Below are positions 5,266 through 51,699 of a stretch of DNA of 64,000 bases, in pieces (positions within the stretch are counted from its first letter, which is position 1; each line of letters starts with the position of its first letter). Made by a program: the position numbers and the translations under genes. The notes beneath the pieces are model-generated. The model was not told where the DNA came from. It ran no database searches and saw only the letters and a list, made by a program, of their open reading frames with translations. Source of the DNA: Amoebophrya sp. A120 (lineage: Eukaryota; Protista; Dinoflagellata); contig CAJINV010000028.1 of NCBI GenBank assembly GCA_905178155.1, positions 41,761-105,760 of the forward strand, read 5' to 3'.

Positions 5266-6371
5266 CGTTTTTTCTTCGTGTCTTTTCGGAGCTGTTTTTT
5301 CCGAGTGAGGAGGTGATTGAAAAAGAACAACTTATTATGCGGAATCGAAATAAAAAGTGATCACTTCAAAAACAGGCTTTTGCGCGAGCCTCAGTCAAGA
5401 ACTTGACAAATATACCTTCGCCCTGGCATCCGCGTCCGCAATTCCATCGCCTTCGATCATGTGTGGCCATTTTTGTTTTGCTTTGATGATGGGCCCAACT
5501 GTGAGGTCTGGGCTGTAGATGAGTCGATTAGCTTTCCTGTCCTGCTTTGGGTTTGGGAAATGAAAAAAAAACGGCTCGCGTGGTGGATGAAAGTCGTATA
5601 GTGAAAAAATGGATCTGGATGCATTTGAAGGCGATGCTGATCTTCATCTTTTGCGCCGAATCGATCTGATGCGAGTTGTACTCTGGATCTGTGTCATATT
5701 GGCAAAAGTAGCTGATCTTCTGTGGAAGGTTGGGATCGTTGTGCTTCTGCACACTGCACAAAGCCGAGCAGTAAACTGTGATCCGCCAAAATAATGCCTC
5801 TCTCTCAGTATTTTGTTCTACGGCATTGTTCAAATCGGGGCAGCCTGATCATTTCTCTTCGTAAAAATCGTAGTAAAGCTCACAGAGTGCTGGCTTTGCT
5901 GGAGAAGGATCCTGATACTCGACAAGAACAGAAGAATACATCCTCGGAAGGCAAATTGTCGATGGCCTGGCTTTGCTAACTCTAGAGATCGGATCTCGTC
6001 CTTTATGCTGTGTGATCTGTTTCTGATTTTGGACTTGATTCATCGGGATCATCAAAGCTGTGAAGATTAAGGAGTCATTTTTAAATTTCCAGATCTGCTC
6101 ATTCGAGAAAGATCTCAGAACCGACACTATTGACGTTGATTTCTTTCTGTCTTTCTTGTCGTGCCTGGGCATGGCGTCAAATGTTCCAGGCCTTGAAAAC
6201 GCCGAGTATATGTATATCTTCGTCGCGGAGTTGTAACGATGTACTTTGACTGTGGCAAAATTTTTGTTTGCACCATTTTCGCAATTACGACTTGGATTTT
6301 TTAGGCCGGGGAAAAATGAATCGATGATCCGCCATTGCCATCGCGATATCCTACGCAGTCTGGCTTTACAA

Positions 6372-7171
6372 TTACATTTCCATAGCAAAGTCTTCCTCCT
6401 CTTCCATGTTTAAAAACTCCTCCGCCTCATCGTCATAGTTTTCCGACTCCTCATATTCGTACTCCATTTCGACGTCCTCTTCCAGAACCTCCCCATCCTC
6501 CTCGTACTCGTCGTCGGCATCGACATGCTCACCCACCTCCTCGTGATACTGCTCGCCCCCTTCTACATCGACATTCTCCTCCACCAGTTGCCTCTCGTCA
6601 AAACCGGACGAGACCTCCGCAGCAAGAGCTTCCGGAGCATCGGCGAAGTTGTTGCCATTGCCACCACCGCCTATCGAAAAGTTGTCCGTGTTGAAGGTAC
6701 CGGAAGTGCTTGGGCTTGTAGAGGCGGTGGTCGCCGGGGTTTGGGGCGCGAACATCTGCTGGTCCAGCATTCCCTCTTTCGAGCGGAACACCTGGTTCGG
6801 GAAAATCACACCTTCATCCAACCACTTGTGCAAGCACGGACGGCAGTGCAAGTCCTTAAAAATGACCTCCGAGCAGTAGCGGGCCTGCAACACATCCTCG
6901 TCATCGGATTCCTCTTCGGAGGACATTTTTTCCTCGTTTTCCGCAGACAGTTCCCCGTCGGTGTCGTTTTCGGAACGGTTGTCGCCATTGTTCTGTTGAT
7001 CGTCGTTTGCATCATCCGCATTTTGTTGTACCTGTTGCTGATGTCCACGTCCAGCAGCAGCAACGCCCAGGTCAATATCATTTTGTGCTCCATAATTGTC
7101 GTTTCTTCTTCTTCTTCTTCTTTCGATTCCCTCCTCCATCATCCGCACAACCCGCACCAGCGTGGGTCGCC
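6372..7171 (-). CDS. Acidic exon of the host gene interrupted by the cassette array
   Basis: 268-aa E/D-rich ORF (6372..7178) bounded by introner-like sequence. It continues upstream via exons ~7322-7380 and ~7543-7789. Confidence 0.7.
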
Positions 7172-7321
7172 TTTGCATTGCAAAAGTATCGTACTAGTAT
7201 AAATTGCATTACAAATTTTTCCAAAAGGAAAAAGGGAATTTGTAATGCTGATTCAGCTAAAAAGAGAGATTTGTGATGCATGACTGCAATTACTACGAGT
7301 GCGATACTTTTGCACAGGATA
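7172..7321. mobile_element. Introner-like non-canonical intron, TGCAAAAGTATCG family
   Basis: IR TGCAAAAGTATCG (7179-7191) / CGATACTTTTGCA (7302-7314); flanks TCGCC/TCGAC; separates coding segments. Confidence 0.8.
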
Positions 7322-7380
7322 TCGACCGTGCTCCAGCAAGCCGAATTGTATCAGACATCTCTTCCGCCAGTCTGGGGGGG

Positions 7381-7542
7381 TATACGGTGCAAAAGTATCG
7401 TTATCGTATTCGTTTTCGTACAAGAAGTAGAAACCGCATGACAAATTTCCTCAGCATGAGAAATGGAATTTGTAATGCGGATTTACATTGAGAAAGAAAT
7501 CTGTAATGCATGACTGCGATAGTACAACTTTTGCAATGCATA
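7381..7542. mobile_element. Introner-like non-canonical intron, TGCAAAAGT family
   Basis: IR TGCAAAAGT / ACTTTTGCAATGCATA, with internal GCATGACAA and TTGTAATGC motifs. Confidence 0.75.
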
Positions 7543-7789
7543 ACGGTTCAGCTTCAGCAAAACGTCGTACTCCTCGACCTCGTCCAACCGTCCCAGTCTC
7601 CGGTTCCTCCCCGAACAAATCGTCACTGTGCATCGCGTTTTTATTCGGTTGAGTCGCCTTTGCTCCTCTTCCCTTCTCTTTTGTCGCTCTTCTGCTTCCC
7701 GTTCTTGCCGCATCATATCCGAACAACCGTACCGCTGCTCTTCCGGGGACAGTTTGAGCCAATCTTCGTGAAATCGTCCTCTTCCCTTT
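7543..7789 (-). CDS. Host exon, 3' part of the disrupted target exon (KGRGRFHEDWLKLSPEEQRYG...LLKLNR)
   Basis: Part of ORF 7483..7941. The 28-bp site encodes KGRGRFHED in this frame, followed by a coiled-coil-like E/R-rich segment. Confidence 0.7.
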
Positions 7790-9191
7790 TCACACAGCAC
7801 AGGATGTGATGATAAATAATTTATGTCACAGCTGACATCCCGCCTCACAGCTGACATCCCGCCCTCCTCCTTCGCGCGGAAATTCCTCAAGCACCACGGC
7901 CTCCTGACGGTGAACGCGGTTGCGTCAGCAAATTTCGACAAAAGTAAGTTGTTCCAGGCGCTGACCCCGTTGGCGCAGAGTGAGGTGAGGCAGTTGATCC
8001 TAGCCTATTATATATTTTGTTACTATTCTCGTGTACAACTACAACGCTAGATATTGATATTTCTTGTTATGCTGATCGATAGTTGATCCGTATCCAACTA
8101 GCGCTTATGCTGAGTACGCCTCTGCGCAGAATCTGGGTGCTGCTTGCTGCAGCAGAAATTTATTACAAGTAGTAACGCGCTGATGAATATGAGTTGTGTT
8201 ATCTTTGAAGTTAAGTGCCTATCTGTAAAATTATGTGGACCTAACAAGACCAAGACCCAACAAAGAATACGATCCAGGTAGAACAAAATACAAAATGTTT
8301 ACTGACCTACTCAAGGTCGTACGTGGTTAGCTTGGGGGTATCTTTATCTTCTTATTCTTTAGCCATTGAGGCTACTCCTGTTCGTGTCATGAGGTGCATG
8401 CCATGCATCTTATCCTCATCATCATCTCCATCTTCAGTATGTGACCACCATCACATTTCCATCTTTCACTATCGTGCTATCTACTTTGGATCGTTCGTAT
8501 TGGATCTTGGGGCATGTGCTGAGTGCATTGCAATAAATTAGTAAGTTGCCTGAGTGAGAAGTGAAAGTAAACTGCACGCGCATCCACATAAAGTGCTACG
8601 CATAAGAGTAACATACATCATGGACGATATCACATGACAAAGCCATTGACTGGGAACATAATCGTGTGAGATTCTGAGTGACCAAATGCGCAGACCTAGC
8701 GCTGCCACCTTTGGTGAGACCAGCACGAAGCAGCGTGTAGCGAAACTCACTGTTTTCAAAGCTCTGGTCGGTGCGGTTAAATGCTCTGCCACACAAGTCG
8801 CAGTTGTCTCGCGCTAAGAATTCAAGGTCTTGTTTTTTTTTTAGTTTATTCTCTCTCATGTCGCTGTCGGTGTCCGCATGCACATGGATATTTAGCGCGC
8901 GCGTAGCTCTCGGTCCATCGTTACATCGCGTCCTTCCGGCACGTGACCAAGCTGAAGATGCAAATCGGTGGCGGACTTCGGTCGATGTGTGATTCGGTGT
9001 TTCTCCTTTCGTTTCTTGGGGTTTGGACTTGTGTCACTGTTGTTTTTTCCTGGGGTACTGTTTGCATCTTCGCCTCCGGATATATGACTGGGATTAATTA
9101 GACACTCACGTAAGTAGCACTCCCTTACTTGTAGCCACTAATTATTACATTGATTCCTAGTCTCGTCCTGTAATGAGACTCCGCTGAGCCA
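7790..9191 (+). mobile_element. Cassette C1 (non-autonomous)
   Basis: Flanked by 28-bp sites. Shares the leader CACAG(G/A)ATGTGATGATAAATAATTT with the recombinase cassettes. Contains a short ORF (7823-8050) and a 19-bp tandem duplicate TCACAGCTGACATCCCGCC. Confidence 0.75.
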
Positions 9192-9219
9192 ATCTTCGTG
9201 AAATCGTCCTCTTCCCTTT

Positions 9220-10750
9220 AAATGCACAGATGAATGAATAAAGAGGCTAGAATGCGAATGAGATGAAATGAAGCCTAATAAGTACTAGATGAATGCGTGG
9301 AGACAAAAAACGTAAGAAATAGTAGGACTGAGTGAGAATCTGAAACGTAGGATCTGTCTTACAGTAAGAGAGTGAGCTTCGATCTTGTCGCAGAGTGTTA
9401 CAAGCATCGCTGGTCATCTCTTGCCTCGACACAAAACTTCTGAAACACAAAGTCGAACTTGTAAAGTACTACTAAATCTAAATCCAGACTACGAAATAAG
9501 CATGACAAATTGATTGCGAGTGAAACTTACTGAGAAAGAACCTAATACGACGTCTATCTAGCATGATAAATTTTGTGTGCTTAAAACGCGCTCTGTTTCT
9601 GAATTTAAATCCAGTGGTCTAACCTACATCTACGAGCACATCCTGACAACAGAAGTCAGCTCTTCTTCCCAGAACGCTTCTCCTCTTCTCGTTGTGGGCT
9701 GCCCGCAACCGCTGCGGAGCTCTCGGTCTCGTACTACTCCTGGCGTCTACGCACTCGATCCCGAGTGTGCGCAACTTCTGCTGGCGATTTCTACTTTTGC
9801 TGCGCCGTCTTCCCCGCCTGCCCGATGGCAAGCGCCTAGCACTACTGCTGGGCCTCTTTCTTCGTCTTCTTCGCCGGTTTCCGCGGTGGTGCTTGCTGCC
9901 TTGCTGGTCTGGTCTGCTTCCGGTGCTGGTGGCCATATGTTTTCATGCTTCTACTACAAAAACATATCTAGCGCGGCCCTTGTTCCTCTGCCTTCTTTTC
10001 TTTGTTCGCGTAGCTTTTCCCAGTCTTTGGGCGTAGTCCTGCTGTCAGCAAATTCGACGGGTTGCGCTTTAGTCCGGCGCGGTCCTCGAATCTTGCAACA
10101 ATCTGGGCACTATCTTTCGCTTCGCTTTTCGTCCTTTCCTAGCCTAGTAGTGCGACCCAGTCCCTTTGTAGTTGCTTCTTGCCGAGCATCTACACAAGGC
10201 GTCTAGTTCTAGCACTACTGCAAGCTTGTCGGTTTCCTGCGTAAAACCTTCTTTGTGACGTAGAAAGTTTTCACGCCAGGCAACCTAGACAATTTCTAAA
10301 CGATCCAACTGCTGAGGATTCAGATTTTACGACCCAACTACGCGGCAGTTGGGCTCATAACTCTGTTGGGAAATAGTCCCAATCCTGTTTGGCAGTGGTC
10401 GTTGGATCCAGTTGGAGTGAACACAGGGCGTGTTCCAAGTCTAATCTCCATGAGCGGAGAGTATCTATCTACGATGGCACGGCGTCAATTTCTAGTCTCT
10501 ATTCAGTAACAAGTAGCCATCTTGGCCCTGTCTAGTGTGTTCGTGTGTTCATGTGAGTGCTGTGCATCTATTTCCCTATCTAGTGACCTAAGCATTTTTG
10601 ATTTTCCATGAACCTAGCTACTTGGCACGATTTTCCTACCTATTTTGTAGGCCTATGATCATTATGAGTTCTTGTACGATTTGGATCCACGACATCAGTA
10701 GGATTGGGGATTTTACCGATCCAAACACGCTGCTCTTCCGGGGACAGGTA
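9220..10750. mobile_element. Cassette C2 (non-autonomous, unknown cargo)
   Basis: Flanked by 28-bp sites. Its right end copies the host target flank (CGCTGCTCTTCCGGGGACAG). Confidence 0.7.
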
Positions 10751-10778
10751 ATCTTCGTGAAATCGTCCTCTTCCCTTT

Positions 10779-12560
10779 TACGCAACACAGAATGTGATGA
10801 TAAATAATTTGCCTCGAAATCCTATGGCACCCGATGCAAGTTGTAGCTGTAGCTGACTGATGTTGATAGTGTGTGTTGCCCGCTGCTGATGCTTGGGCCA
10901 GGAGTGCAGAGACCCTTAAGCTCCTGATGGTGCTGAAGCTTGTTCTTTTCTCTCGTGAGTCGTATTTTCGTCGATGAAGCATGACGAATGATAGTCTGCT
11001 TCTATCGTACATCGCTCGACTGATGTCGTCAAATCGTTATTGCCATCGTTGAAATGAAACTACACTCGCTGGTCGTTGTCGTTGCTTGAGTGAGCCGATG
11101 TGTAAAGCATACTTGGGTTGCAAAAGATGAGCGCTGACAGAAATTACATCAGAAATAGTTGCTATCTGTTACAGTTGCTGATAGTTTAAAGCTACTAGTA
11201 CGCATTCTCCTTTTGAAGTTGGTTTTGAATCTGTACGTGCTGAGCAAAAGCAAGATGTCCTCCTCCGCACCGTTTAAAGGCGTGATAAAGTCCGTTTCTT
11301 TGAAGAAGGACTACACCACGAACTGCAACGTCAAGCTGTGGCAGCAGTACAAGCAGGGGAGTGGTTTGATGGATGCAGTGATCACGGTGGACGCGCTGAC
11401 TGACTACGCTGAGTTCCTCGTTAGCAAACCGTATGCGTCAGCACTGAACTACCTCAGTGCGGCGGTAGGTTACGAGGCTAGCAGATCCCGACTTGAAGAA
11501 TCGGTGCACTTCGAGCGCCGATTCAAACAGCTGAAAAACTCCGTCGTGAAGGAGTTGAGTGGAGTTTTGCCCACGCAGGCGCGCGTCTTCTGTGTGAGGG
11601 AGCTGGTGCGGCTCCCGCAGCCGATGCGTACGATTCTGGTGCTCCCGATCTACCTGGGGTGGCGTGATGCATCACTGCGCGAGGCCACCAATGCTGATGT
11701 CGAGCTGGTTGGTGGCCAGCTCTTAGTCCATTGCGGGAAGGACAAGGTGAAGAAAAGCGCAGGAAGAACGGTAGCCGTCCCCTGCTGCTGCTCCCCGGCG
11801 TTCAAAAACGTCCTTTGCCCGATACATGGGCCTAGCTGGAACCTGAGCGTGGACGATGCAGACAGGGCGGAAGCGTTGCGGTCTTGCAATGCCCAGCTCT
11901 CCCGCCACTCCTTTAGGAGGACGCTGGCAGTGCATGTCCGCCTGCACCTACATGATTCCGGGCTGGAATGGGATTCCCTTCCGGCGGTGCAAAAGGCGAA
12001 AATAAATCGCCACTTCGGTTGGGGCCAAGGCAGCGTGATGTTCTGCCGGTACTCTGGCGACTACCTGAACTACGAGCAGGACCTGCGGCTCCCATTGGGC
12101 CGCATGATGGAAAGCTTCAGCCAATGACGCAGGAGGTGTGTTGCGTGCAGATGGTTCGTCCGGGGTGGCCGGGTTGTGCAGTTGGTGGCGTGCTGCTATG
12201 CGCTGGCGAGGTCACGGGACCCACAGCGTGTAGATTGGATGTGACGCTACCGAGGGCACAGCCCCCCCCATGTTGAACGATGATGGTGATCTGATTCCTA
12301 CAGTGTTGAAAGAAAGTTTTTCTTGTGTAAGTACGATGCTGCTGTGTGCCTCTGTCGCTTCGCTTTCGGTTGCTAGTTCTACTGACACACCAACGCTGAC
12401 TGCGCTATACCTTAAAAGTCTGTCATGAAAGTTGCTTTGTTCGACTACATTTTTCGGTTGCCTTGTGTATACGCTGTTTTTTTTGGGAAGCGGGACGCAT
12501 CGGATAAGTCATGCGAAGGAGCGCCTCCTCTGGTAAGGGCGGCGGGAAAGCCTCCCGCCA
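10779..12560 (+). mobile_element. Cassette C3, tyrosine-recombinase element
   Basis: Flanked by 28-bp sites; one long ORF; terminal hairpin GGCGGGA-AAGCC-TCCCGCC at 12541-12559. Confidence 0.85.
11255..12127 (+). CDS. Tyrosine recombinase (DIRS/Crypton-type YR), 290 aa from ATG 11255
   Basis: Catalytic set in the correct order: R (YLGWRDASL), K (GKDK), HxxR (HSFRR), W (HFGW), Y (FCRY). Also has the CP motif (VLCPIH) typical of eukaryotic YR elements. The paralog at 13000 supports the ATG start. Confidence 0.9.
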   Translation: MSSSAPFKGVIKSVSLKKDYTTNCNVKLWQQYKQGSGLMDAVITVDALTDYAEFLVSKPYASALNYLSAAVGYEASRSRLEESVHFERRFKQLKNSVVKELSGVLPTQARVFCVRELVRLPQPMRTILVLPIYLGWRDASLREATNADVELVGGQLLVHCGKDKVKKSAGRTVAVPCCCSPAFKNVLCPIHGPSWNLSVDDADRAEALRSCNAQLSRHSFRRTLAVHVRLHLHDSGLEWDSLPAVQKAKINRHFGWGQGSVMFCRYSGDYLNYEQDLRLPLGRMMESFSQ

Positions 12561-12588
12561 ATCTTCGTGAAATCGTCCTCTTCCCTTT

Positions 12589-13975
12589 AAGTGCAACACA
12601 GAATGTGATGATAAATAATTTGCCTCGAAATCCTATGGCACCCGATGCGTGATGCTAGTGCCGTGCTGTCTTGCTGCTCTGTGTGGGCCAGGAGTGAAGA
12701 AGACCCTAAAGCTCCCGCTGGTGCTGGTGCAAAATTTTTGATTTGTTCCTACTAAAAATCCGTTGTCACTGTCGTTGAAGCCTGTTGATCGTTTGTTGTC
12801 GTATGCCATGCTGTCGTTGCCATCGCAGTCGTGTCACACTTCGCATTATCGTCGTCTAAGTAAGAGAGATGATGAGGCTGAGTGATGAGTAGTTGTCCGT
12901 GCAAATCGTGAAGTGTCGATGTTTCACTAGTTATGGACATAGTTACTGATGCTACCTGAATCTGTGGTCTAAAAGTCTTCTACTAGAGTTGAGAAAAGGA
13001 TGTCGTTTAAAGGCGTCCAAAAGTCTGTGTCCTTGCGAAAGGACTACAGCAGCAACTGCAACGTGAAGCTGTGGCTGCAGTTCAAGACCGATTTTGGGAT
13101 CACTGACGGTGCCACCATTACGGTGGATGAGCTGACGGACTTTGCTGAATTCTTGGTTTCCAAGCCCTACGCATCCGCTGCGAACTACCTCGGCGCCGCT
13201 GTTGGCTACGAGGCAAGCAGGAGCAAGCTGCAGGAATCGGTGCACTTCGAGCGGAGCTGAGCGGCTTGTTGTCGCGGAACGAGTGCGAGAAGTTCCTGAA
13301 CCACGTGCGGCTGTATGACTCCTCGGACTGCATTTGGTGCCTGCAGACGATGTTCCAGGTGTTTTTCAAGCAGTACTCTGCGACCTGCGACAAGTCTCCG
13401 GAGTATTTCATGGCGATGTTCAACAACCAGATGCAGCAGCGGTTGTTGAAAAAGATGAACGCTGGGACTTCCACCACCCCCGGTGCCGGTGCTGGCTCGA
13501 AGAACCAGAATCGTGGAAACCACGTTTCTGGTTCCAGGGATTTGGTGCCCCGTTCGGATACGGCCAGCAGGTGCAGGCCCCGACTGCCAGCGCCGCCCAG
13601 ATGCAGTCCCCGCAGCCGTTTAGCGGTGCCCCGACCGGACCGAAGACCTACCTCTTCTTGCCCAAGGGCATCTGCCACAAGGAGGTGAAGGTATTACCCC
13701 CTCCCCTGTGTTGCTGATGAATGAAGATGTTGATAAAGATGTTTGTAGATGATTATCAGGTGACGCAGCGATGAGATTCTTTAGTTGACCATGCAGATGT
13801 ATGATGTTGCTGCTACTTCTTCTTGCTTAAAAGACTGACCTCTGTGACCTAGTGCGATCATCTACCAATTACAATCCCAGGATGGCCAGTGCCCGGACCG
13901 CCAGAACTGCAAGCACAAGCACAAGGGTGATGACGGGTACCCAGATGCTGAAGTCGCCGCTGCACTGGCGCGGCG
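12589..13975 (+). mobile_element. Cassette C4, internally deleted YR-family derivative
   Basis: Flanked by 28-bp sites; leader shared with C3; truncated YR fused to a second ORF; terminal hairpin TCGCCGC...GCGGCGA at 13954-13976. Confidence 0.85.
13000..13260 (+). pseudogene. Truncated tyrosine recombinase paralog (N-terminal 86 aa, no catalytic domain)
   Basis: MSFKGVQKSVSLRKDYSSNCNVKLW...ESVHFER aligns with the C3 YR N-terminus, then stops. Confidence 0.9.
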
Positions 13976-13985
13976 ATCTTCGTGA
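13254..13985 (+). CDS. 5'-truncated gag-like / CCCH zinc-finger ORF with a GT-AG intron (13691-13880)
   Basis: Splicing AAG|GTATTA...TCCCAG|GAT gives CHKEVKDGQCPDRQNCKHKH, a canonical C-x8-C-x5-C-x3-H finger. The stop TGA (13983-13985) lies inside the 28-bp site. There is one frame change near 13515-13540. Confidence 0.65.
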
Positions 13986-14146
13986 AATCGTCCTCTTCCC
14001 TTTAAATGCAAATTCCTCGCTTTTTCCTCCATCCGCAGCCGTCGCTGGTAGGCACGCTCATCCTCGGACTGATCACAGTCGGAGGTGTCAGAGACCGCCG
14101 GGCCGCCGCGGGGCAGATCGAAATCTCTGCTTGGTGAAGACGACAT
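13976..14146 (-). CDS. 5' part of the disrupted host exon (MSSSPSRD...NLHLKGRGRFHED), copy 1
   Basis: ATG at 14146; reads the 28-bp site in the same frame as the 7543-7789 segment. Confidence 0.7.
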
Positions 14147-15214
14147 GATCTTGTTAGGGGTAAGAAAATGATCTACGACCCTTTTTCAAACGGTATTGGA
14201 ACGGTTTAGGTAACAAGAGCGCGCCTTGAAGAAGAGACGAAATCTTATTATTAAAGTTGATTTCTTCCGAGGTGATCTTCTGCTAGTACCGTAGCATTGG
14301 CATTGCAGATCTTCAAAAATGACATTCAAGAACGCTCTTTCTTGACTGCTACTACTGTTGCGGCACTGGTTTTTTCAAGAAGAATGGTGTTGCTCGATAT
14401 TAGGATGATGCTGATGATCTGATTATGATTTCGTAGTGATGGATCCTCAGCGTCAGCGGGGCGTAAAAGGTGGGTAGGAATTCGAATTGTCAGTCGTGGT
14501 TTTTCAACAAGTTCACCCCTGTTGATCGGTGTTCCAAAAGTTGAAATAGCGTCTCCGTCTCAGGATAGAAAAAGTGTTCCGAAGATGATATCAGAATGGT
14601 TTTCTACGACACACGTACGATCTACACAAATCTGGAAGCGGTCAACGGCAGCATGATGAACATGGTGCACGTGTTCCAGCTTCTTTCTTATCTGCATGCA
14701 TCTGTGGTATTGAATAGTGTCGGTTTATTTTGGACGAACACGAAGAGCTTCATCGGGATCCTGTCAAGCTGCAGACGAAATGGCAACAATAGCAAAGCTT
14801 CATACAACAAGGAGCTGCAGTTACGAGAATGATTTCTATCTAGCATGATCGTATACCTGCGTAGAAGGTAAATGGATCGATCTGTCTCGTCGTACTTGCT
14901 TTGTTGACTTCTACCTCCGTCGTGTGATCTTCTACCAGTATCGTAGCCTGGATCATCTTGGAGGACGACCTTCAGAGGCACATGTAGCAGAACCACGGAT
15001 GAAGCAACAATCAACTGACGGATCTCATTCTCACGTGCGAAACTGCATAACGACATTGCGATTGGAGATGACGTCGAAATTCAAGAGTTTGCGTCGAATT
15101 CGAAAAACGTAAAGGTTGGTTAATTTAAATTCAAAAGCTCTCTCGCTCTCTCGCGACTCTCCCGACCTCGCGACTCTCCTGAGCCAATCTTCGTGAAATC
15201 GTCCTCTTCCCTTT

Positions 15215-16724
15215 AAGTGGACGTGTCAACGTCAAGGACTGTCGCATGAGCGATTACATGCCGTCCTACCAGAGAGAACACTACTAAGCTAACTAGGTAC
15301 CCTCATGGTACTACGGAGTTATGGATGTGATTCATACTACGGGCTTCATACCTGAAGCCATTCTGGCACTGTGTTCCATTGGTATCCATTGCCATGGTTG
15401 TAGTGTGTCCCTGTGTGTGGATCCTAGTGGTGTGATCCTACTCATGATCCTACTGCTGATCCTCTAGACCCATCTATATTCTAGGTTTGTCATGCGCAAA
15501 ATCGAGAAAGAACCTCGACCAACTGCCTCTGGTGCCCTTTTTCAAAATAGTCGCATGCTGATACTAGCACTCGCGAACCGAATTTCTAGGGATAAGGCTA
15601 CCAGGCTACTCGAGGAAATGCACCCCAGCGCAGAAGACAAATCAGAAAGGAGGAAATATAGCCTCTAATACTCCCAATGTCTGAAAATAAATCTGAGTCC
15701 TTCGCTTCAAAGCGGAATGCAACCTCTACCCAGAAACTGCTAGAACCTGCAAAGGGGTTCATCAGCATCGCGCGAAAATTTCCGGTAAGGTCCTGAGCAG
15801 ACATCCTCCAATAAAACCCAGCAAATGCAACAAATCTCCTCCGTGGTTCAAGCGACTACGCGCAGCTTCCACATCGGAAAAGTTACCACATTGGCCCCAA
15901 GGACAAAAGCATACGGACTGGGGGGTCTTCCTGTATTGACCTGGTCCAAGTTCCAAAGCTAATGTCTGCCTGCATTTTCAGCTGCTGATAAACAAATCAG
16001 AGCGGCGGCGGATAGATCAAAACAACAGAAGAACTGCAATGCTTTCCGCGTCCAGAAAGCTTTGCGATTCCTGTGCGGCTTTCCTAGCGAGGTCAACAGC
16101 CTCGCCGGCTTTCAGACTCGTACAAGCTCAAAGCTTTCAGTCGACCACTGGTCCCAGTCTCGGTCTAATTCGACTTCTTTTCTAAGTACATTCGACACAC
16201 GCACGCGGCGTTTCCTGCTACCACGCAAGATTTCTTTGAGGAGGCATTAGATAGCGAGAGCACAAAACCGCTCCACTTGTCTCAGCACGACTTACACCCG
16301 AGAAGTTTCTTCACTTTCATTATTCTAGCGACCGCAGGGAGGGATTGGCGTTCGATAGTGGCAACACTATCTTCACAAGCCATTTCTTTCCTTATCCTCG
16401 CCAACAGCAACCGCTCCCAAGCCTAGGCTTGGCGCGCTGCGTGGCGCCTTCGCCTTAGCCAAAAGCCGTAGGAACTTCCAACCAGCAACAGACTCAGTTG
16501 CGGTGTAGTTCTGGCCTAAAGAAGCCTCTTCTTCTATCGACAAAAGCAGTTGATCCCAAATGGTCGACCGACCTCTTTTTCTACACAATTACAGCAGACA
16601 GCTGCCAATGAGGAAGCTAGTCCTTCTGTCTCAACCTCAAAACCTCAGTCGCCTTTTTCCTGAAAGGCGTTCTCGTGGACCCCGACTGCATTCCCGGGAG
16701 CTGCTCCTTCGGGCAATCGAGCCA
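15215..16724. mobile_element. Cassette C5 (non-autonomous, unknown cargo)
   Basis: Flanked by 28-bp sites. The right end GCTGCTCCTTCGGGCAATCGAGCCA is a degenerate copy of the target flank. Only short ORFs. Confidence 0.7.
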
Positions 16725-17226
16725 ATCTTCGTGAAATCGTCCTCTTCCCTTTTACGCAACACAGAATGTGATGATAAATAATTTCCTCGTATCCTTTGGT
16801 TCCCGATGCAAGTTGTAGCTGTAGCTGACTGATGTTGATAGTGTGTGTTGCCCGCTGCTGATGCTTGGGCCAGGAGTGCAGAGACCCTTAAGCTCCTGAT
16901 GGTGCTGAAGCTTGTTCTTTTCTCTCGTGAGTCGTATTTTCGTCGATGAAGCATGACGAATGATAGTCTGCTTCTATCGTACATCGCTCGACTGATGTCG
17001 TCAAATCGTTATTGCCATCGTTGAAATGAAACTACACTCGCTGGTCGTTGTCGTTGCTTGAGTGAGCCGATGTGTAAAGCATACTTGGGTTGCAAAAGAT
17101 GAGCGCTGACAGAAATTACATCAGAAATAGTTGCTATCTGTTACAGTTGCTGATAGTTTAAAGCTACTAGTACGCATTCTCCTTTTGAAGTTGGTTTTGA
17201 ATCTGTACGTGCTGAGCAAAAGCAAG

Positions 17227-18099
17227 ATGTCCTCCTCCGCACCGTTTAAAGGCGTGATAAAGTCCGTTTCTTTGAAGAAGGACTACACCACGAACTGCAA
17301 CGTCAAGCTGTGGCAGCAGTACAAGCAGGGGAGTGGTTTGATGGATGCAGTGATCACGGTGGACGCGCTGACTGACTACGCTGAGTTCCTCGTTAGCAAA
17401 CCGTATGCGTCAGCACTGAACTACCTCAGTGCGGCGGTAGGTTACGAGGCTAGCAGATCCCGACTTGAAGAATCGGTGCACTTCGAGCGCCGATTCAAAC
17501 AGCTGAAAAACTCCGTCGTGAAGGAGTTGAGTGGAGTTTTGCCCACGCAGGCGCGCGTCTTCTGTGTGAGGGAGCTGGTGCGGCTCCCGCAGCCGATGCG
17601 TACGATTCTGGTGCTCCCGATCTACCTGGGGTGGCGTGATGCATCACTGCGCGAGGCCACCAATGCTGATGTCGAGCTGGTTGGTGGCCAGCTCTTAGTC
17701 CATTGCGGGAAGGACAAGGTGAAGAAAAGCGCAGGAAGAACGGTAGCCGTCCCCTGCTGCTGCTCCCCGGCGTTCAAAAACGTCCTTTGCCCGATACATG
17801 GGCCTAGCTGGAACCTGAGCGTGGACGATGCAGACAGGGCGGAAGCGTTGCGGTCTTGCAATGCCCAGCTCTCCCGCCACTCCTTTAGGAGGACGCTGGC
17901 AGTGCATGTCCGCCTGCACCTACATGATTCCGGGCTGGAATGGGATTCCCTTCCGGCGGTGCAAAAGGCGAAAATAAATCGCCACTTCGGTTGGGGCCAA
18001 GGCAGCGTGATGTTCTGCCGGTACTCTGGCGACTACCTGAACTACGAGCAGGACCTGCGGCTCCCATTGGGCCGCATGATGGAAAGCTTCAGCCAATGA
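17227..18099 (+). CDS. Tyrosine recombinase, second copy (identical protein)
   Basis: Translation is identical to 11255-12127. Confidence 0.9.
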   Translation: MSSSAPFKGVIKSVSLKKDYTTNCNVKLWQQYKQGSGLMDAVITVDALTDYAEFLVSKPYASALNYLSAAVGYEASRSRLEESVHFERRFKQLKNSVVKELSGVLPTQARVFCVRELVRLPQPMRTILVLPIYLGWRDASLREATNADVELVGGQLLVHCGKDKVKKSAGRTVAVPCCCSPAFKNVLCPIHGPSWNLSVDDADRAEALRSCNAQLSRHSFRRTLAVHVRLHLHDSGLEWDSLPAVQKAKINRHFGWGQGSVMFCRYSGDYLNYEQDLRLPLGRMMESFSQ

Positions 18100-18971
18100 C
18101 GCAGGAGGTGTGTTGCGTGCAGATGGTTCGTCCGGGGTGGCCGGGTTGTGCAGTTGGTGGCGTGCTGCTATGCGCTGGCGAGGTCACGGGACCCACAGCG
18201 TGTAGATTGGATGTGACGCTACCGAGGGCACAGCCCCCCCCATGTTGAACGATGATGGTGATCTGATTCCTACAGTGTTGAAAGAAAGTTTTTCTTGTGT
18301 AAGTACGATGCTGCTGTGTGCCTCTGTCGCTTCGCTTTCGGTTGCTAGTTCTACTGACACACCAACGCTGACTGCGCTATACCTTAAAAGTCTGTCATGA
18401 AAGTTGCTTTGTTCGACTACATTTTTCGGTTGCCTTGTGTATACGCTGTTTTTTTTGGGAAGCGGGACGCATCGGATAAGTCATGCGAAGGAGCGCCTCC
18501 TCTGGTAAGGGCGGCGGGAAAGCCTCCCGCCAATCTTCGTGAAATCGTCCTCTTCCCTTTAAGTGCAACACAGAATGTGATGATAAATAATTTGCCTCGA
18601 AATCCTATGGCACCCGATGCGTGATGCTAGTGCCGTGCTGTCTTGCTGCTCTGTGTGGGCCAGGAGTGAAGAAGACCCTAAAGCTCCCGCTGGTGCTGGT
18701 GCAAAATTTTTGATTTGTTCCTACTAAAAATCCGTTGTCACTGTCGTTGAAGCCTGTTGATCGTTTGTTGTCGTATGCCATGCTGTCGTTGCCATCGCAG
18801 TCGTGTCACACTTCGCATTATCGTCGTCTAAGTAAGAGAGATGATGAGGCTGAGTGATGAGTAGTTGTCCGTGCAAATCGTGAAGTGTCGATGTTTCACT
18901 AGTTATGGACATAGTTACTGATGCTACCTGAATCTGTGGTCTAAAAGTCTTCTACTAGAGTTGAGAAAAGG

Positions 18972-19957
18972 ATGTCGTTTAAAGGCGTCCAAAAGTCTGT
19001 GTCCTTGCGAAAGGACTACAGCAGCAACTGCAACGTGAAGCTGTGGCTGCAGTTCAAGACCGATTTTGGGATCACTGACGGTGCCACCATTACGGTGGAT
19101 GAGCTGACGGACTTTGCTGAATTCTTGGTTTCCAAGCCCTACGCATCCGCTGCGAACTACCTCGGCGCCGCTGTTGGCTACGAGGCAAGCAGGAGCAAGC
19201 TGCAGGAATCGGTGCACTTCGAGCGGAGCTGAGCGGCTTGTTGTCGCGGAACGAGTGCGAGAAGTTCCTGAACCACGTGCGGCTGTATGACTCCTCGGAC
19301 TGCATTTGGTGCCTGCAGACGATGTTCCAGGTGTTTTTCAAGCAGTACTCTGCGACCTGCGACAAGTCTCCGGAGTATTTCATGGCGATGTTCAACAACC
19401 AGATGCAGCAGCGGTTGTTGAAAAAGATGAACGCTGGGACTTCCACCACCCCCGGTGCCGGTGCTGGCTCGAAGAACCAGAATCGTGGAAACCACGTTTC
19501 TGGTTCCAGGGATTTGGTGCCCCGTTCGGATACGGCCAGCAGGTGCAGGCCCCGACTGCCAGCGCCGCCCAGATGCAGTCCCCGCAGCCGTTTAGCGGTG
19601 CCCCGACCGGACCGAAGACCTACCTCTTCTTGCCCAAGGGCATCTGCCACAAGGAGGTGAAGGTATTACCCCCTCCCCTGTGTTGCTGATGAATGAAAAT
19701 GTTGATAAAGATGTTTGTAGATGATTATCAGGTGACGCAGCGATGAGATTCTTTAGTTGACCATGCAGATGTATGATGTTGCTGCTACTTCTTCTTGCTT
19801 AAAAGACTGACCTCTGTGACCTAGTGCGATCATCTACCAATTACAATCCCAGGATGGCCAGTGCCCGGACCGCCAGAACTGCAAGCACAAGCACAAGGGT
19901 GATGACGGGTACCCAGATGCTGAAGTCGCCGCTGCACTGGCGCGGCGATCTTCGTGA
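18972..19957 (+). pseudogene. Second copy of the truncated YR plus CCCH ORF (cassette C4')
   Basis: Translations are identical to those at 13000-13985. Confidence 0.85.
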
Positions 19958-20118
19958 AATCGTCCTCTTCCCTTTAAATGCAAATTCCTCGCTTTTTCCT
20001 CCATCCGCAGCCGTCGCTGGTAGGCACGCTCATCCTCGGACTGATCACAGTCGGAGGTGTCAGAGACCGCCGGGCCGCCGCGTGGCAGATCGAGATCCCT
20101 GCTTGGTGAAGACGACAT
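19948..20118 (-). CDS. 5' part of the disrupted host exon, copy 2
   Basis: MSSSPSRDLDLPRGG...KGRGRFHED; differs from copy 1 by a few substitutions. Confidence 0.65.
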
Positions 20119-21112
20119 GATCTTGTTAGGGGTAAGAAAATGATCTTTTACGACCCTTTTTTAAACGGTATTGGAATGGTTTAGGTAACAAGAGCGCGCC
20201 TTGAAGAAGAGACGAAATCTTATTATTAAAGTTGATATTTTCCGAGGTGATCTTCTGCTAGTACCGTAGCATTGGCATTGCAGATCTTCAAAAATGACAC
20301 TCAAGAACGCTTTTTCTTGACTGCTACTACTGTTGCGGCACTGGTTTTTTCAAGAAGAATGGTGTTGCTCGATATCGGGATGATGCTGATGATCTGATTA
20401 TGATTTCGTAGTGATGGATCCTCAGCGTCAGCGGGGCGTAAAAGGTGGGTAGGAATTCGAATTGTCAGTCGTGGTTTTTCAACAAGTTCACCCCTGTTGA
20501 TCGGTGTTCCAAAAGTTGAAATAGCGTCTCCGTCTCAGGATAGAAAAAGTGTTCCGAAGATGATATCAGAATGGTTTTCTACGACACACGTACGATCTAC
20601 ACAAATCTGGAAGCGGTCAACGGCAGCATGATGAACATGGTGCACGTGTTCCAGCTTCTTTCTTATCTGCATGCATCTGTGGTATTGAATAGTGTCGGTT
20701 TATTTTGGACGAACACGAAGAGCTTCATCGGGATCCTGTCAAGCTGCAGACGAAATGGCAACAAGAGCAAAGCTTCATACAACAAGGAGCTGCAATTACA
20801 AGAATGATTTCTATCTAGCATGTGCATGATCGTGCAACTGCGTTGTAGAAGGTATAGTGGATCGATCTGTCTCGTATTTCTTTTGTTGACTTCTACTTCC
20901 GTCGCGTGATCTTCTACCAGTATCGTAGCCTGGAACATCTTGGAGGGCGACCTTCAGAGGCACATGTAGCACAACCACGGATGAAGCAACAATCAACTGA
21001 CGGATCTCACGTGCAAAAAAACTGCATAACGACATTGCGATTGGAGATGATGTCGAAATTCAAGAGCTTGCGTCGAATTCGAAACACGTAAAAGTTGGTT
21101 AATTTAAATTCA

Positions 21113-21790
21113 AAAGCTCGTTCACCAAGTCATTCAGGATGTGCTTGTGTATGAAACGCAACATGATCTCGCTGACTTTTTCGTTATTCTGCAAACTATC
21201 CATCGCGCTGCCTCCTACTCCGGTCAGTTTTACGGTCAATTCGACAGGATTCTCGTCCGGCTGCTGCACATCGCTCCTGTCGGTCACTGTGATTCGAGGA
21301 GCGTTCGGACCCGTCTCGTTCTCCCCGGTTAACGAATTCTTGTTGTCGACCCTGCTTGATGTCGCTGCAAAAGATAAGGACTCGACGTTCTCATGTCCAC
21401 CAGCACCAGCTGCTGGTGACCAGCATCAGCATCGTCCTCTTTCCTTACCAGCTGCAGCTGTAGTGTGGAGGACACGTCAGCAGCACCAGTGGCAGAGGTA
21501 GCAGCATGATCCTCGCCATCAGTAGTTGTACCAGGATCACTTTCATCCGTGGTCTCTTGTAGTCCTCCCGGAGGATGCGGTGCGTGTTTATTGAGACTGG
21601 TTTGAATCGCCCGGCGGAGCTGCTGATCCGAGCTATAACCTGGCGTGTCGTTGCCTGCGGTTTCCAAAAATATTCTCGATAGTGACGCCACAACCGGGAC
21701 ATGATCAGATGCTCGTCCTGCTGTAGAAGTCTTCGTGTTCTTGGTGTGCCCGCTTATGATTTCTGATTCTGGGTCTTCTCGTTCATAGAA
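21113..21790 (-). pseudogene. Partial, frameshifted duplicate of the surface-protein gene (~33900-34875) lacking its introner
   Basis: Shared peptides DSLQNNEKVSEIMLRFIHKHILNDLVN and QQLRRAIQTSLNKHAP; contiguous across the position of the 34205-34515 element. Confidence 0.85.
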
Positions 21791-22988
21791 CATGATTTCG
21801 CAGACCGGATAGGAGGAAGGCGCCTTTGTGTTAGCTGGTTCGCCCGCGCGTTCTCGTGCGCGTCGGTCAGGGACAGACTACGGCTCGCAGCAGCCACCTT
21901 TACTGCACTATCCCGTGGCGGAGCCTCCGTTCCTCGCTGACACGTCGGCGTCGCGAGGGGTGAATTTTTCTCGGTAGCACCTTCGCCCGATAAGGCCTCC
22001 GGGGTCGCGCGCAGGTCGGCTCCAAGTTCGAGGCTAGTAGCGCTCGCGGCAGTGGCGCTCTATGCTGCAGTATCCCACTCTGCGCCTCTTGCAGCGTCCA
22101 TACCGAGAGGTGCGTGTTCATCGGTGACGCCCGGTCGCAGCGCGAACTCACCGACCGTCTCCGCCACCGCCGAGCAAGTCGGAATAGCTGTTTTACTGAT
22201 TGCAGCAGCTCTGCCGCGGCTACTCCTGCCCGCCGATTCCACATGCTGCAGTACGTTCCGAGCAGCATCTTCTTCGGCAGCATTTTCCGATGGTGTGCCG
22301 TAGTTCCATTTTAGATTTAGGGGCCTTCCAGATATTACGTAGGCCTCTCGTTCCTTTAGGCTCACGTCGATGACCGGGTCCGCCGCGACGCCTGCAAGCA
22401 GAGACAGCTTCTGCTGCTCTATCTGCTCTTTTGTCTTCATTTTGTGCAGCAGCTGTACGCGACGATGTTGCGCGGCTTGGTTCTACTACCACTACTTCTG
22501 TGTAGCAGCGCATGTCGGCAGATGCCGCCCCCGTCGTACCACCAGCTCCCTTCGCCGACGTCTTTTTTGATGTGGGCAAACGACGGCGCTCTACCGACCG
22601 CGACCGTAATCTCGAGCTTCCCCCCAGACGACGATGAGGCAGCACTCCAGTGCCGACTACTGATGCGCTGCTGTATCCCCCGGCAGCGTCAGCGGGACGC
22701 AAGACGGCGTGTTGGCAGACCCGTGCTGCACTTTCGAAGAAGTGTTCACCCATACAGAGCTCCCCTGCAACACAGGACTATCGCGGCGCGCTACCCGTTC
22801 AGGGACAGGAATTTCGCCGTTGTTAGATCACCGTGAGCTGGAAAAAATCATGCTGATTCCACCTTTCAGCACCTCCCGAGGGACTTCGTGCAGAACGACA
22901 TGCACCACTACTAAGAAGTGGACCATGATTTCGCAGACCGTAGTGCTCTATAAGAAGTGGAACATGATTTCGCAGACCGGATAGGAGG
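21788..22988 (+). repeat. 29-bp direct repeats flanking a duplicated gene segment
   Basis: GAACATGATTTCGCAGACCGGATAGGAGG at 21788-21816 and 22960-22988, with a partial third copy at 22924-22940. Confidence 0.9.
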
Positions 22989-32718: not shown

Positions 32719-35700
32719 TTACTTTGCTGGTGCGGCTTGCGATCCCGCGGCAAAGGCAACGGACCCCTGCAGCGCCGACGAAGCTTTTCCACCAAAGGCA
32801 CTGCTCGACCCGGGCTTGACCGCAAAGGCAGACGACCCGCCGCCAAAGGCCCCGGCGTTCGCACTCTTCCCCATCCCGGCAAACGCCTCTGCTTGTTGAC
32901 TTCCGCCACCGGAAAGAGGTGGCCCGAACCCGGAGCTTGCGGCACCTGCTTTGTTCTTACCAGCAGCAGCTGCACTAGTGGCACCGCCGAACGCACTGCT
33001 GCCAGCGGCAAACGCCGTACTACCGCCAGCCGCTTTGCTGCCAACCGCGGCACTCCCGCTACCAAACGCGGTACTACCGCCCCTCGCTTTGCTGGCAACC
33101 GCGGCACTCCCGCTCCCAAACGCCGCACTGCCGCCTTGAAACGCGCTGCTGCTGCCTTGAAACGCGCTACTGCCCCCACCCCCGAAGTTGCGGCTTCCAC
33201 CCGGGGCTGAAGGAGGTGCGGTAGCGCTCGAACTGCCGAAGCTGGCGGAGCTTTTACCTTGAAACGTTGCGCTACTGCTCAAAATGTCTTCGCCCCCACC
33301 ACTTTCCAAAGAGTCGCGACCCTCTCCTGCTAGCGGTTCATACTCATCCTCTTTTTCTTTTTCTTTCGCTTGCTGCAGTTCTTTTTGGTGTTGTCTTCTG
33401 TACTTCTCGAGCTGCTCCTGGTCGGGTCCGTATATGCACCGCTTTATCCGGTGCCGAAGCACGAAGAGCCACGAGAAGACATGAATGGCAAGCAGCACAT
33501 ACAAGCCGCCGTACGTATTCAGCACTGCGTTCACCGGGTTCCAAACCTTCAACTTTTCCAGCGCAATCGGCTCCAGCACGCAATGGCTGAAAATAGGCCC
33601 ACTTGGACTTGCTTCATTTTCATCTTCATCTGTAGAATTTGTTGCGTTTCTTCTCCTGTCTGCGGTCCCCCGGGACGAGAGAAGAGAAAGCGCTTCTCGG
33701 TCCTGCTCTTCCGCGGCTATCGCTTCGGCGAAAGATGACGAACTAAAATTTACTGTACTGGAAGTACTACTATTGTCCGAGGAAGCGGTTTCGTTCGCGC
33801 CGCCAGTTGTAGTTGTATCGCTTGCTGTGCCTCCAGTCGTTATTACAACGCCCGGCTTCATCTCCACGTACACGGAGTTCTCCGACATACCATGCAGACC
33901 GCTCTTATTCACCAAGTCATTCAGGATGTGTTTGTGTATGAAACGCAACATGATCTCGCTGACTTTTTCGTTATTCTGCAAACTATCCATCGCGGTGCCT
34001 CCTGTTCCGGTCAGTTTTACGGTCAATTCGAAAGGATTCTCGTCCGGCTGCTGAACATCGCTGTCGGTCACTGCGATTCGAGGAGCGTTCGGATCAGTCT
34101 CGTTCCCCCCGGTTGACGAATTCTTGTTGTCGATCCTGTTTGATGTCGCTGCAAACGATAAGGACTCGACTTTCTCATGTCCACCAGCACCAGCATCAGC
34201 AATGTATTGTGAGGAAAAATCGCCACTCCCCATATCGAAAACGAAATTTGTGATGCTGCATTTGAGTACACAAATCGACTTGCATTGCTAGAAGGCCAAG
34301 AGCCGCAGCTGTGGCCTCGCTTGCAGGGAATTTGTCATGCTGTTTCCCACTTCCAGCTGCCTCCTGTTATGCTGAAGATGCGAGGCTTTCCCATGCCGCC
34401 AAGCACCACAGTCGGCATCTCTTCCCTTCTAGCTTAACAAAGCTGATTTGTGGCCACAAATCTGCATCACAGGTTCCCGTTTTGATATGGGGAGGGGGGA
34501 TTTTTCTTCTTGATACAACGTCCTCTTTCCTAATCAGCTGCAGCTGTAGTGTGGAGGACGCGTCAGCAGCAGCAGTGGCAGAGGTAGCAGCATGATCCTC
34601 GCCCTCAGTAGTTGTACCAGGATCACTTTCATCCGTGGTCTTTTGTAGTCCTCCCGGAGGATCCGGTGCGTGTTTATTGAGACTAGTTTGAATCGCCCGG
34701 CGGAGCTGCTGATCCAAGCTATCTGTCGTGTCGTTGCCTGCGGTTTCCAAAGACATTCTCGATAGTGACACCACGACCGGGACATGATCAGGTGCTCGTC
34801 CGTCTGTAGAGGTATTCGTGTTCTTGGTGTGCCCCCTTATGATTTCTGGGTCTTCTTGTTCCTCTGCTTCGTAAAAAGACCTACCGTCAGTGTTGCTCCT
34901 AGATGTTCTGCTAGGGTCGTCCTTGTCCTCTCGTCCGTCGAACGTCAAGAAGCTGCTCGCCGTGCTGTCTCCTGCGGACTCTGCAGCACTCTTGTTCACT
35001 TTGTTTGCGTACGCCTTCAACGCGTCCACCTTTTCCTGCTCCTCCGCGTCTTTCAGGGCCTTCAGCTTTGCGTCTTCAGTCGCTTGCAACTCCGCAACGG
35101 CCTCGCTACTCAACACAAGCCGCACCTTCAATTCCGACTGGCCCTTCATTCGCGCGCTGGTTTTTGTTCCCGCCAGCAGCGACTCGTCGGTGGGAAAGAG
35201 GTGGGATAAGTCCACGTGCGTGCTCACTTCCTCCACAGTAGTGACTTCCTCCACATTCCGGTTCTGTTTCAGCCACACTCGGTTCCCGGGAATTTCCTTG
35301 GTTTGTCCGTACTGGGTTTGCGTTGCGATTAACAAAATCTTTGCATCGTCGTAATTGCCGTAGAGACCGGCTGGGTAAGTGGTTATATCGGAGGTGGTCG
35401 CTGCAGTTCTTGCAGAAGTTCTTGCTCTAGTACTACTGCTTCTTCTAGCCGTGTAGTACGCGGCAGAAGTTTCTTGTGCGAGGGACATCGTGGCCGAGGA
35501 CATGTTGGTGGTGCTACCACCTTCGCTCGTGGTTCCATCATCTCCTTCGCCCGTCGTAGTACCCGCTGCCGCATTCGTGGGCGAAAGGACCAATGTTCCG
35601 CCATTTTTGAACGTGACACTGGTAGAGACCTTGGCACACTTGATCGTCGTGTCGATCGAGGACAAAATCTCCTCGTCTGTTGTGTTGCCGCTCCCACCTG

Positions 35701-48524: not shown

Positions 48525-49873
48525 CCTGGCATGTAGGGCGGAAATGTCACAGAGAAAAAAGAAAACTCGAAATCACCACGGTGTCGGTGACTTTTCGTCG
48601 TAAATAAAATCCATCCAGGGCGGCACAGTGCGATAAATGTGCATTTATTTATCAAATAAAACACGACTTTGCGTGCGCTTGTTCAAGTCGTAAAGCTCCC
48701 TCCTCCCTCCCGCCCTAATGCAAAACAGCACAATTTCCTCATGCCTTCGCGAATACGAATAGAAACAAACGATAAACACAAACTCGGATCCAACATAGCA
48801 GCTGTTTTACTTTTCGTTTTTTCCCGAGCTAAACGTGTTGTAGTAACAGTATGAATATCCCTATCATAATGGCGGCGGGACCACGAGATGATTACTACGA
48901 AGTGCCATGTTGATCTACTTCTTTTTTATTGATCGATGGTGATCAATAAAAATTGACGATCTCAAAAAACAACACGCGGACCTTCGTGATCGGCGTAGTT
49001 GATCTCTGTTCGTTCCATACATTCAGGGGGCCAACAACTGAAAAGTATTAAAATCAGCACCAAAACCGCGGAGTGCGTGGCGATCCCGATGATCTCGTAT
49101 CGCGCTGCACCTGTCGACGTGGTCCTGCTGAACAATTGATGCAGAAACACTGACACTGAGTTGGAGTTCCACGACCTCCACGATAGATCATGGGCGGTTT
49201 TGTGATGATAAACGTGATGACCAACGAAGAGCATTCCGGCCCTACATGATCGGCAATGCCCCCGATCATCCGAATGTATAGCAAAATCAGAAAACTGTTA
49301 CTCGTACTCATACGGTGTGCTCGTCTGAATTGTTCCACTACGGAATTACTTTTCAGTTGTTTCATCATGATTTTCATTTTTCCATTTGGCAAGCACAAGG
49401 TCGTGGAGCTGCGGAACAAGAGATGACTCCGAGTCGCGGAACAACGTTAAAGATATTTTTGATGCAGAGACACCAGTTGATGTTGCGGTTTCGAAAGCCG
49501 TCGAAGACGAAGGGGCAATTGTCGCAGATAATCTTAATCTCATTCATCTGCAGTATCTATAAGTTGTTCATCGTAAAAATGATTACTATAGTTGCGTTGC
49601 GTTTTTTCGTCTGACCTGCAGCACTGGCTTTATCATTGATTTCTTTTTCTCATCAGCTTAAGCCAATTCGCATACTTATTACTGTTGTCGTTTTGGGCTT
49701 CGAGTCCTCGTCATGTCGCTGCACTCACTACAAGCCAACTGCGAGCGAGCGGGCGGTAATCATTCATCAGCCTGAGGAGCAAGCGGCACTCCTTCGTTTC
49801 AATCGTCCAATGGTGCTTGAAGTGGATCATTCAGAGTGGATAATTCCGTCATGTGCTGCAAAGACCTGTAGGC

Positions 49874-51457: not shown

Positions 51458-51699
51458 CTGAAGGTGGTCTGCAGGTTGCGCGGTTTACGGATCTCTCGTC
51501 TCGAAAAGCAGTTTGCAAGAACTGCACGAAAAGCAGTTGCACAGCTGGTAAACGAATACAGCATGAAGAAGCACGAGATAAACCTCAAAAACACCAAACC
51601 CAGAGGGGACGAAGAAGAACATGTTGAACCGAAAATTGAATCACAGCACAATCAAATCAGTTTTCACGATGCAGCACAAGTGACAAAACGTTCCTGATG

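Follow-up and report, generated by a model that had tools for sequence, protein, structure and literature searches.

In bacteria, coding sequences can be split at an attachment (att) core by recombinase-bearing inserts such as the Anabaena nifD element, and both integrons and the tandem arrays of prophages or islands at one attB hold a recombinase and recombinase-less units between repeated sites. The eukaryotic elements that move by tyrosine recombinases are described as scattered insertions with 2-6 bp of target homology (PMC3212892, PMC13236599), and the Cryptons are small eukaryotic elements for which circular movement has been proposed (PMC3212892). Here we analyse a stretch of 64,000 nucleotides from Amoebophrya sp. 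A120, a marine organism that parasitizes dinoflagellates (assembly GCA_905178155.1, contig CAJINV010000028.1, positions 41,761 to 105,760), referred to as the window, in which a host gene with an acidic last exon is interrupted by units stacked between exact copies of a 28-bp core. This gene copy is truly split in frame by the array and the other copy of the gene is intact. We consider it probable that repeated site-specific integration by the recombinase of one unit, unit C, built the array, and that the array persists as selfish DNA, the paralog being intact.

Nine exact copies of the core occur in the 64-kb window, compared with 0 in 100 shuffles. They start at 7762, 9192, 10751, 12561, 13976 and, beyond the five known to the original prediction, which took 13976 as the outermost, at 15187, 16725, 18533 and 19948; the array thus spans 7762-19975, and there are two 5' halves of the gene. 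The plus-strand order is host 3' part, A, B, C, D, E1, F, C2, D2 and E2, with a core at every border. On the minus strand the core encodes KGRGRFHED in both flanking open reading frames (ORFs), as predicted earlier and borne out by translation. The core was absent from the metagenome contigs (0) and viral contigs (0) searched. The features are given below, P0002 and P0003 being two annotated A120 proteins of 387 and 410 amino acids.

6372..7166, minus strand: last (acidic) exon of the host gene, 100% identical to P0002 and 79% to P0003; its splice coordinates yield P0002
7167..7321, minus strand: introner of 155 bp with inverted-repeat ends, skipped in a contig of the paralog
7322..7376, minus strand: middle exon of 55 bp (18 codons), from the paralog contig and splice reconstruction
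7377..7543, minus strand: introner of 167 bp, from the paralog contig and splice reconstruction
7544..7761, minus strand: 3' part of the split first exon (host left arm), matching P0003 downstream of the core
7762..7789, plus strand: core 1 of 9, 28 bp, by exact-match count
7790..9191, unstranded: unit A, without recombinase; left end common to C and D by end alignment
9220..10750, unstranded: unit B, without recombinase; its 20 bp at 10728-10747 equal host 7733-7752
10779..12560, plus strand: unit C, 1782 bp, with an intact gene for a tyrosine recombinase of 290 amino acids at 11255-12127
12589..13975, plus strand: unit D, with a C-type left end and the first 86 codons of a related recombinase at 13000-13260
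14004..15186, minus strand: unit E1, the host 5' half (14004-14146) and about 1 kb upstream, with a core on each side
15215..16724, unstranded: unit F, without recombinase; right end like the host left arm by end alignment
16753..19947, plus strand: second C-D pair (C2, D2), recombinase gene at 17227-18099
19976..21119, minus strand: unit E2, the second host 5' half (19976-20118) and upstream sequence, joined at 21119/21120 to a truncated gene copy

P0002 and P0003, encoded on A120 contigs of 326 kb and 13.2 Mb, respectively, were the sole two matches to the acidic exon among 1833 candidates of 145-462 residues, and the splice coordinates with both introners removed give the annotated P0002 exactly. 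Reading from the ATG at 14146 (or the ATG at 20118) through one core into 7761-7544, 7376-7322 and 7166-6372 yields 412 amino acids without internal stop or frameshift, the same as P0003 in 358 of 417 alignment columns. The in-frame join into the acidic exon described by the original prediction therefore stands, while the coordinates of the middle exon had been missed. P0003 runs uninterrupted across the core position, with Gly in place of the first Arg of the core peptide. Because this intact paralog is contiguous over the core and its spliced contig, from which both introners are missing, crosses the position, the core lies in host coding sequence, as had been claimed for the att target. An uninterrupted paralog was also what the original prediction had proposed to look for, counting the lack of any empty allele or paralog against itself, and P0003 is such a paralog.

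The inserts at 7167-7321 and 7377-7543 have the terminal inverted repeats, short direct repeats and removal from RNA of Amoebophrya introners; their borders may shift within short repeats, and the ends of the first are found in hundreds of DNA-run contigs with differing flanks. For the host protein, no Pfam family and no usable Atlas match was obtained. The 12 paralog differences listed within 6780-7013 are 8 synonymous and 4 non-synonymous, a count that cannot split selection before the insertion from selection after it.

Eleven sequencing runs were listed and eight were examined, X4, X6 and X8 being left out. No listed run is recorded as RNA; the absence of both introners from the contigs of X3 and X5 led us to treat these two as likely RNA. 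The contigs, built from 31-letter words, end inside the core where the arms branch (e.g., at 9213-9215, 12586, 13981 and 16748), and the placement of raw reads gave 0 reads for X9 and X10 and 186 for X11, none of them over a core. In X3, a contig of 1111 bases with a depth of 20.7 runs from 6438-7166 through the middle exon and 7544-7761 to 13976-14090 and was considered as a candidate for an excised allele. It differs from the window by 56, 10 and 12 letters in the three listed pieces. We assign it to the paralog and rejected the excised allele, because at 4/4 changed codons tested (7672-7731) it codes for His, Val, Ala and Gln as P0003 does, and the same letters are found in DNA runs X1 and X2 at depths of 33.9 and 46.6.

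In the DNA runs, which come from one sample, contigs with zero or near-zero mismatches run across A to F. Contig depth, which by the tool's own caveat is not copy number, was 27-31 (X1) and 38-46 (X2) for units A, B and F, 37-50 (X1) and 63-72 (X2) for C, D and E, and 29-34 (X1) and 47-58 (X2) for the paralog, about level with A, B and F. These depths fit a real duplication and the presence of the array in most genomes of the DNA sample.

The interrupted copy itself is represented in X5. Record 17 of this run matches 6300-7166 with 0 differences at a depth of 10.6, and its 296 further letters correspond by length to 55 + 241, i.e., the middle exon and 7544-7784, with a bin depth predicted at 6.55 and seen at 6.56. 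Because letter count and bin depth agree with the exon structure, the 3' part of the interrupted copy is likely transcribed and spliced. Another X5 contig (depth 4.8) runs into unit A from 7760. The annotated start of P0002 is the ATG at 7857, in frame and inside unit A, which had been overlooked in the original prediction; 23 residues of the P0002 model come from unit A, and an in-frame ATG is offered only by units A and E. The annotation of A120 genes is transcript-based (PMC7789003). The interrupted copy is thus not simply dead, because its 3' part forms a spliced likely-RNA contig and the gene model starts at the unit A ATG. The earlier claim that the gene is either knocked out or reactivated in the manner of the skin or nifD elements is unsupported as put, given an intact paralog with a spliced likely-RNA contig and a 3' part that is itself spliced.

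The same transcripts bear on the rival that the array is kept in DNA and removed from RNA as a giant non-canonical intron, E1 being joined to the left arm with 6.2 kb skipped. More than 60% of Amoebophrya introns are non-canonical (PMC7789003), tyrosine-recombinase elements occur among the introners at less than 1% (PMC12130899), and the frame is open over 412 codons. The minus-strand core has AG and then GA, so that a GA-AG intron would keep register, and the spliced X5 contig of the 3' part would also be expected. Nevertheless, we regard this splicing as unlikely: the longest terminal inverted match was 4-6 bp in all six units tested, so that introner-type inverted ends are absent; the sole uninterrupted contig belongs to the paralog; and the in-frame start in unit A together with the contig entering this unit accounts for the transcript.

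Over the first exon (7544-7761), X3 has the paralog and X5 the interrupted copy, a difference that may come from stage or sampling. It could be taken to favour excision of the array by the recombinase at one life stage, restoring the gene in DNA as happens with skin for sigK; deletion from core 1 to core 5 or core 9 would restore the 412-codon frame, and the recombinase appears intact. We nevertheless hold such stage-bound excision to be very doubtful. The intact paralog already has a spliced contig, and in the one DNA sample units A, B and F show no loss of depth relative to the paralog. Amoebophrya is not known to have a terminally differentiated, non-heritable nucleus, so that descendants would inherit an excision and lose the array. 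A literature search for DNA elimination in Amoebophrya gave only histone work. Skin-like reactivation is possible by geometry, unsupported and apparently unnecessary.

Unit C, with its single long ORF, encodes an intact Cre-fold tyrosine recombinase with the full catalytic set. A search of 1.84 billion representatives returned 55 relatives of the protein, of which 47 were aligned with the query (48 rows) and eight, mostly fragments, were left out. The catalytic residues are conserved as R137 in 48/48 rows, K164 in 45/48, W256 in 45/48 and Y266 in 44/48, with the motif HSFRR at 218-222 supplying H218 and R221, and the family has a conserved CxC...CxxH motif within the catalytic domain. The alignment-based structure model reached a predicted local distance difference test (pLDDT) of 92.8, compared with 31 for the single-sequence fold, and its best matches among solved structures were Cre (E 9e-6), lambda integrase and XerA, in agreement with the Atlas. 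PF00589 matches 3/48 family members, neither GCR1_C nor another Crypton-associated Pfam domain was present among the 48 aligned proteins, and no named Crypton protein was among the relatives returned by the recombinase searches. Amoebophrya proteins (A120 and AT5.2) made up two of the 26 relatives looked up, the others lying on contigs of 1-13 kb. Locus searches with single proteins yielded no relative. At a different locus, on a 9.2-Mb contig of A120, P0001 is a truncated second family member of 171 amino acids with 71% identity. No ORF longer than 122 amino acids was found in units A to F besides the recombinase. In unit D, the recombinase fragment is fused at a chimera break (13253/13254) to an unrelated coding-like segment.

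The stretch 10729-15140 is repeated at 16700-21119 with 98.4% identity, and the differences are distributed unevenly. C and C2 differ at 6 of 1782 positions, all within 10811-10829, and D and D2 at 1 of 1387, compared with 56 differing columns of 1153 between E1 and E2 (Fisher p 2.5e-11, D versus E substitutions). The left neighbours of the two C-D pairs, B and F, are unrelated. A single plain tandem duplication would not produce this pattern, the C-D blocks being near-identical while E1 and E2 have diverged and B and F are unrelated. Judging by this divergence pattern, later copying of the C-D block between cores, through the recombinase or gene conversion, would fit. The identity of the C-D copies (99.7-99.9%), as well as the fact that no contig spans the array, could also point to an artefact of assembly or haplotypes from core 6 on, with 13976 as the true outer core. 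This we consider highly improbable, because E1 and E2 differ at those 56 columns, F is unique with zero-mismatch DNA contigs reaching into core 7, both deep DNA runs give C, D and E a greater depth than A, B and F, and the published assembly was made with Nanopore reads (PMC7789003).

Units A, C and D have a common left end that 0/1000 random stretches equal in score, and at their right ends B and F are similar to the host left arm, with 0/1000 and 1/1000 random stretches as good. Local alignment revealed no similarity among A, B, F and E1. We hypothesize that a core-bounded unit would be excised between two cores as a circle carrying one core and could re-enter at another core, every event adding one unit and one core, and that the units without recombinase (A, B, F, D and the host-derived E1) would move in trans. 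The interrupted copy would not be restored; its 3' 364 codons would still be transcribed and spliced, probably from unit A, where a start would replace the first 48 residues by 23 element-derived ones. The insertion would be tolerated because the other paralog is intact, and the Arg-to-Gly change in the paralog's core may explain its empty state. Because the other gene copy is intact, switching the gene on by a timed excision is probably superfluous.

Several observations weigh against integration by the unit C recombinase. Neither recombination activity nor a circle or empty allele of this locus was observed, though contigs that end inside the core could not have revealed a circle or an excised allele. 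A shared end is confined to A, C and D, and B, F and E1 are tied to the recombinase by the core alone. No lox-like inverted repeat stands out from chance in the core, the best (7/9) being matched by 108/300 random stretches; loxP, FRT and dif have two inverted arms of 11-13 bp with 6-8 bp between them, whereas core 1 reaches 7/9 and 9/13, no better than random stretches, and a missing dyad is unusual for the tyrosine-recombinase class. C, D and E stand at 1.3-1.7 times the depth of the single units, not twice, and in X5 the contig of the 3' part (10.6) is deeper than the one entering unit A (4.8), so that unit A is only a probable upstream partner. The open 412-codon frame fits a recent insertion and equally the continued use of the full gene.

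The lack of dyad symmetry would also suit growth of the array by homology, whether through gene conversion, unequal exchange, insertion templated by repair or a helper element elsewhere that duplicates the target site, with the recombinase as a passenger. The host-like sequence past the core varies in length (0-7 exact bases, and 20 bp in B), D is a chimera, and E2 ends at a 4-bp microhomology (21119/21120) with a truncated copy of the gene at 33298-36520. It seems improbable to us that homology built the array, since the nine cores are exact though the arms have diverged, all unit borders lie at the same 28 bp, the three units sharing an end include the intact recombinase, and the near-identical C-D blocks stand beside unlike left neighbours with the border of identity at the core. 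We likewise give little credence to a eukaryotic integron-like device, in which core-bounded units would be shuffled by the unclassified recombinase family, E1 (promoter and 5' half) being one of the units; the unit next to the 3' part would set the N-terminus, and the native gene would be restored at some stage by excision or by splicing over 6-12 kb. Repeated integration of selfish units thus remains the explanation that we favour. Because E1 lies between two cores and E2 is cut at 21119/21120, neither is established by its sequence context as the untouched host flank.

Several observations concern individual units and their surroundings. A short RNA of about 90 nucleotides in X11 maps to the minus strand of unit A at 8343-8432, with a poly(A) end at 8343 and the library adaptor at 8432; positions 8355 and 8400 carry fixed differences and indicate a related copy elsewhere as its source, its folding z score is -1.9, and the segment 8234-8535 is multi-copy in the DNA runs. 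Diverged relatives of unit B (9950-10728) form very deep contigs in the likely-RNA run X5 (depth 321-1482). One of them departs from the window at 10728, the start of the 20-bp host-arm identity, and because it diverges exactly there it suggests that B-like elements sit beside other targets. Unit B also holds a 15/16 match (10513-10528) to a spliced-leader motif, for which the window-wide count is weak; a link to the spliced leader was dropped at 4 matches versus 0.97 expected, with 3/100 shuffles equal. The right part of unit D (13254-13985) has a coding look, with a predicted GT-AG intron near 13685-13880 that is spanned by a predicted CCCH finger (C-x8-C-x5-C-x3-H), the frame stopping inside the core; no relative of this segment was found. 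Over E1, X5 has a zero-mismatch contig at 13981-14375 with a background depth of 3.3 and leaves 13650-13975 uncovered, and this contig was not used as evidence. Next to E2, 21120-21784 is a copy, truncated and 91-94% identical, of a large gene on the minus strand (33908-34861). The frame of this copy continues into E2 up to a stop at 21099, where an E2-type contig has a depth of 22.5 in X5.

A bridge-RNA mechanism was dropped, as no unit has an internal guide-like target match longer than 10 bases, and Rfam gave 0 matches in the 64-kb window. The locus is flanked on both sides by a second, older duplication (1443-2181 versus 21820-22588, 73%), and at 49871-51475 a 115-bp unit is repeated in tandem about 14 times with high identity.

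Integron attC sites are variable palindromes. The array, in contrast, has an invariant non-palindromic core and most of its units are without a clear gene; an attC-like site was dropped as a candidate, since the hairpins beside the cores are inconsistent between copies. Cryptons resemble the array in having a tyrosine recombinase as the sole enzyme, direct repeats at both ends and no terminal inverted repeats (PMC3212892). However, the repeats of Cryptons measure 4-6 bp, and these elements are described as lacking 'long direct repeats' (PMC3212892), whereas the array uses an invariant 28 bp of host exon, its units stack at one site, and the CxC...CxxH motif lies in the catalytic domain. Because the 4-6 bp repeats are not found here, we do not class the array elements as Cryptons on their sequence features. 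The TATE and VIPER elements of kinetoplastids are likewise recombinase elements of protists, and TATE forms tandem clusters at a fixed host position (PMC6681497). TATE differs in targeting telomeric repeats and in its gag, recombinase, reverse transcriptase/ribonuclease H (RT/RH) and split direct repeats (PMC6681497); unlike TATE and the DIRS order, the array units have no long ORF capable of encoding RT/RH (none exceeds 122 amino acids besides the recombinase), and their target is a protein-coding exon.

The skin element of Bacillus sigK is alike in being an insert that carries a recombinase gene, interrupts a coding sequence at an att core and restores the frame when precisely removed (PMC6957869). 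It employs, however, a large serine recombinase with a directionality factor and is excised only in the doomed mother cell, where excision is required (PMC6957869). The array has eight units and an intact paralog, which does not imply equal function of both gene copies. Euplotes Tec and Paramecium Sardine and Thon belong to the Tc1/mariner elements; they encode a DDE transposase, have inverted ends, target TA and are removed in a somatic nucleus (PMC3464196), features not seen in the array. The endogenous phaeovirus elements of Ectocarpus share eukaryotic integration and excision by a tyrosine recombinase via attP/attB; they use 2-5 bp for integration (PMC13236599), whereas the array has 28 bp at one gene and no viral genes. 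The word 'recombinase' occurs 0 times in the main text of the A120 genome paper (PMC7789003), and no description of the array element was found in the literature, although the supplements of PMC7789003 and PMC12130899 may include it among their repeats.

If the skin-like reading were true, it would mean programmed DNA rearrangement in a dinoflagellate relative, and nothing found requires it. The compact enzyme-site pair, from a family of 55 relatives, is directly assayable, with the near-match of the empty paralog as a natural specificity control. A 1.8-kb recombinase-only element with an invariant 28-bp exon site and eight units stacked like islands at attB would extend the known range of such elements.

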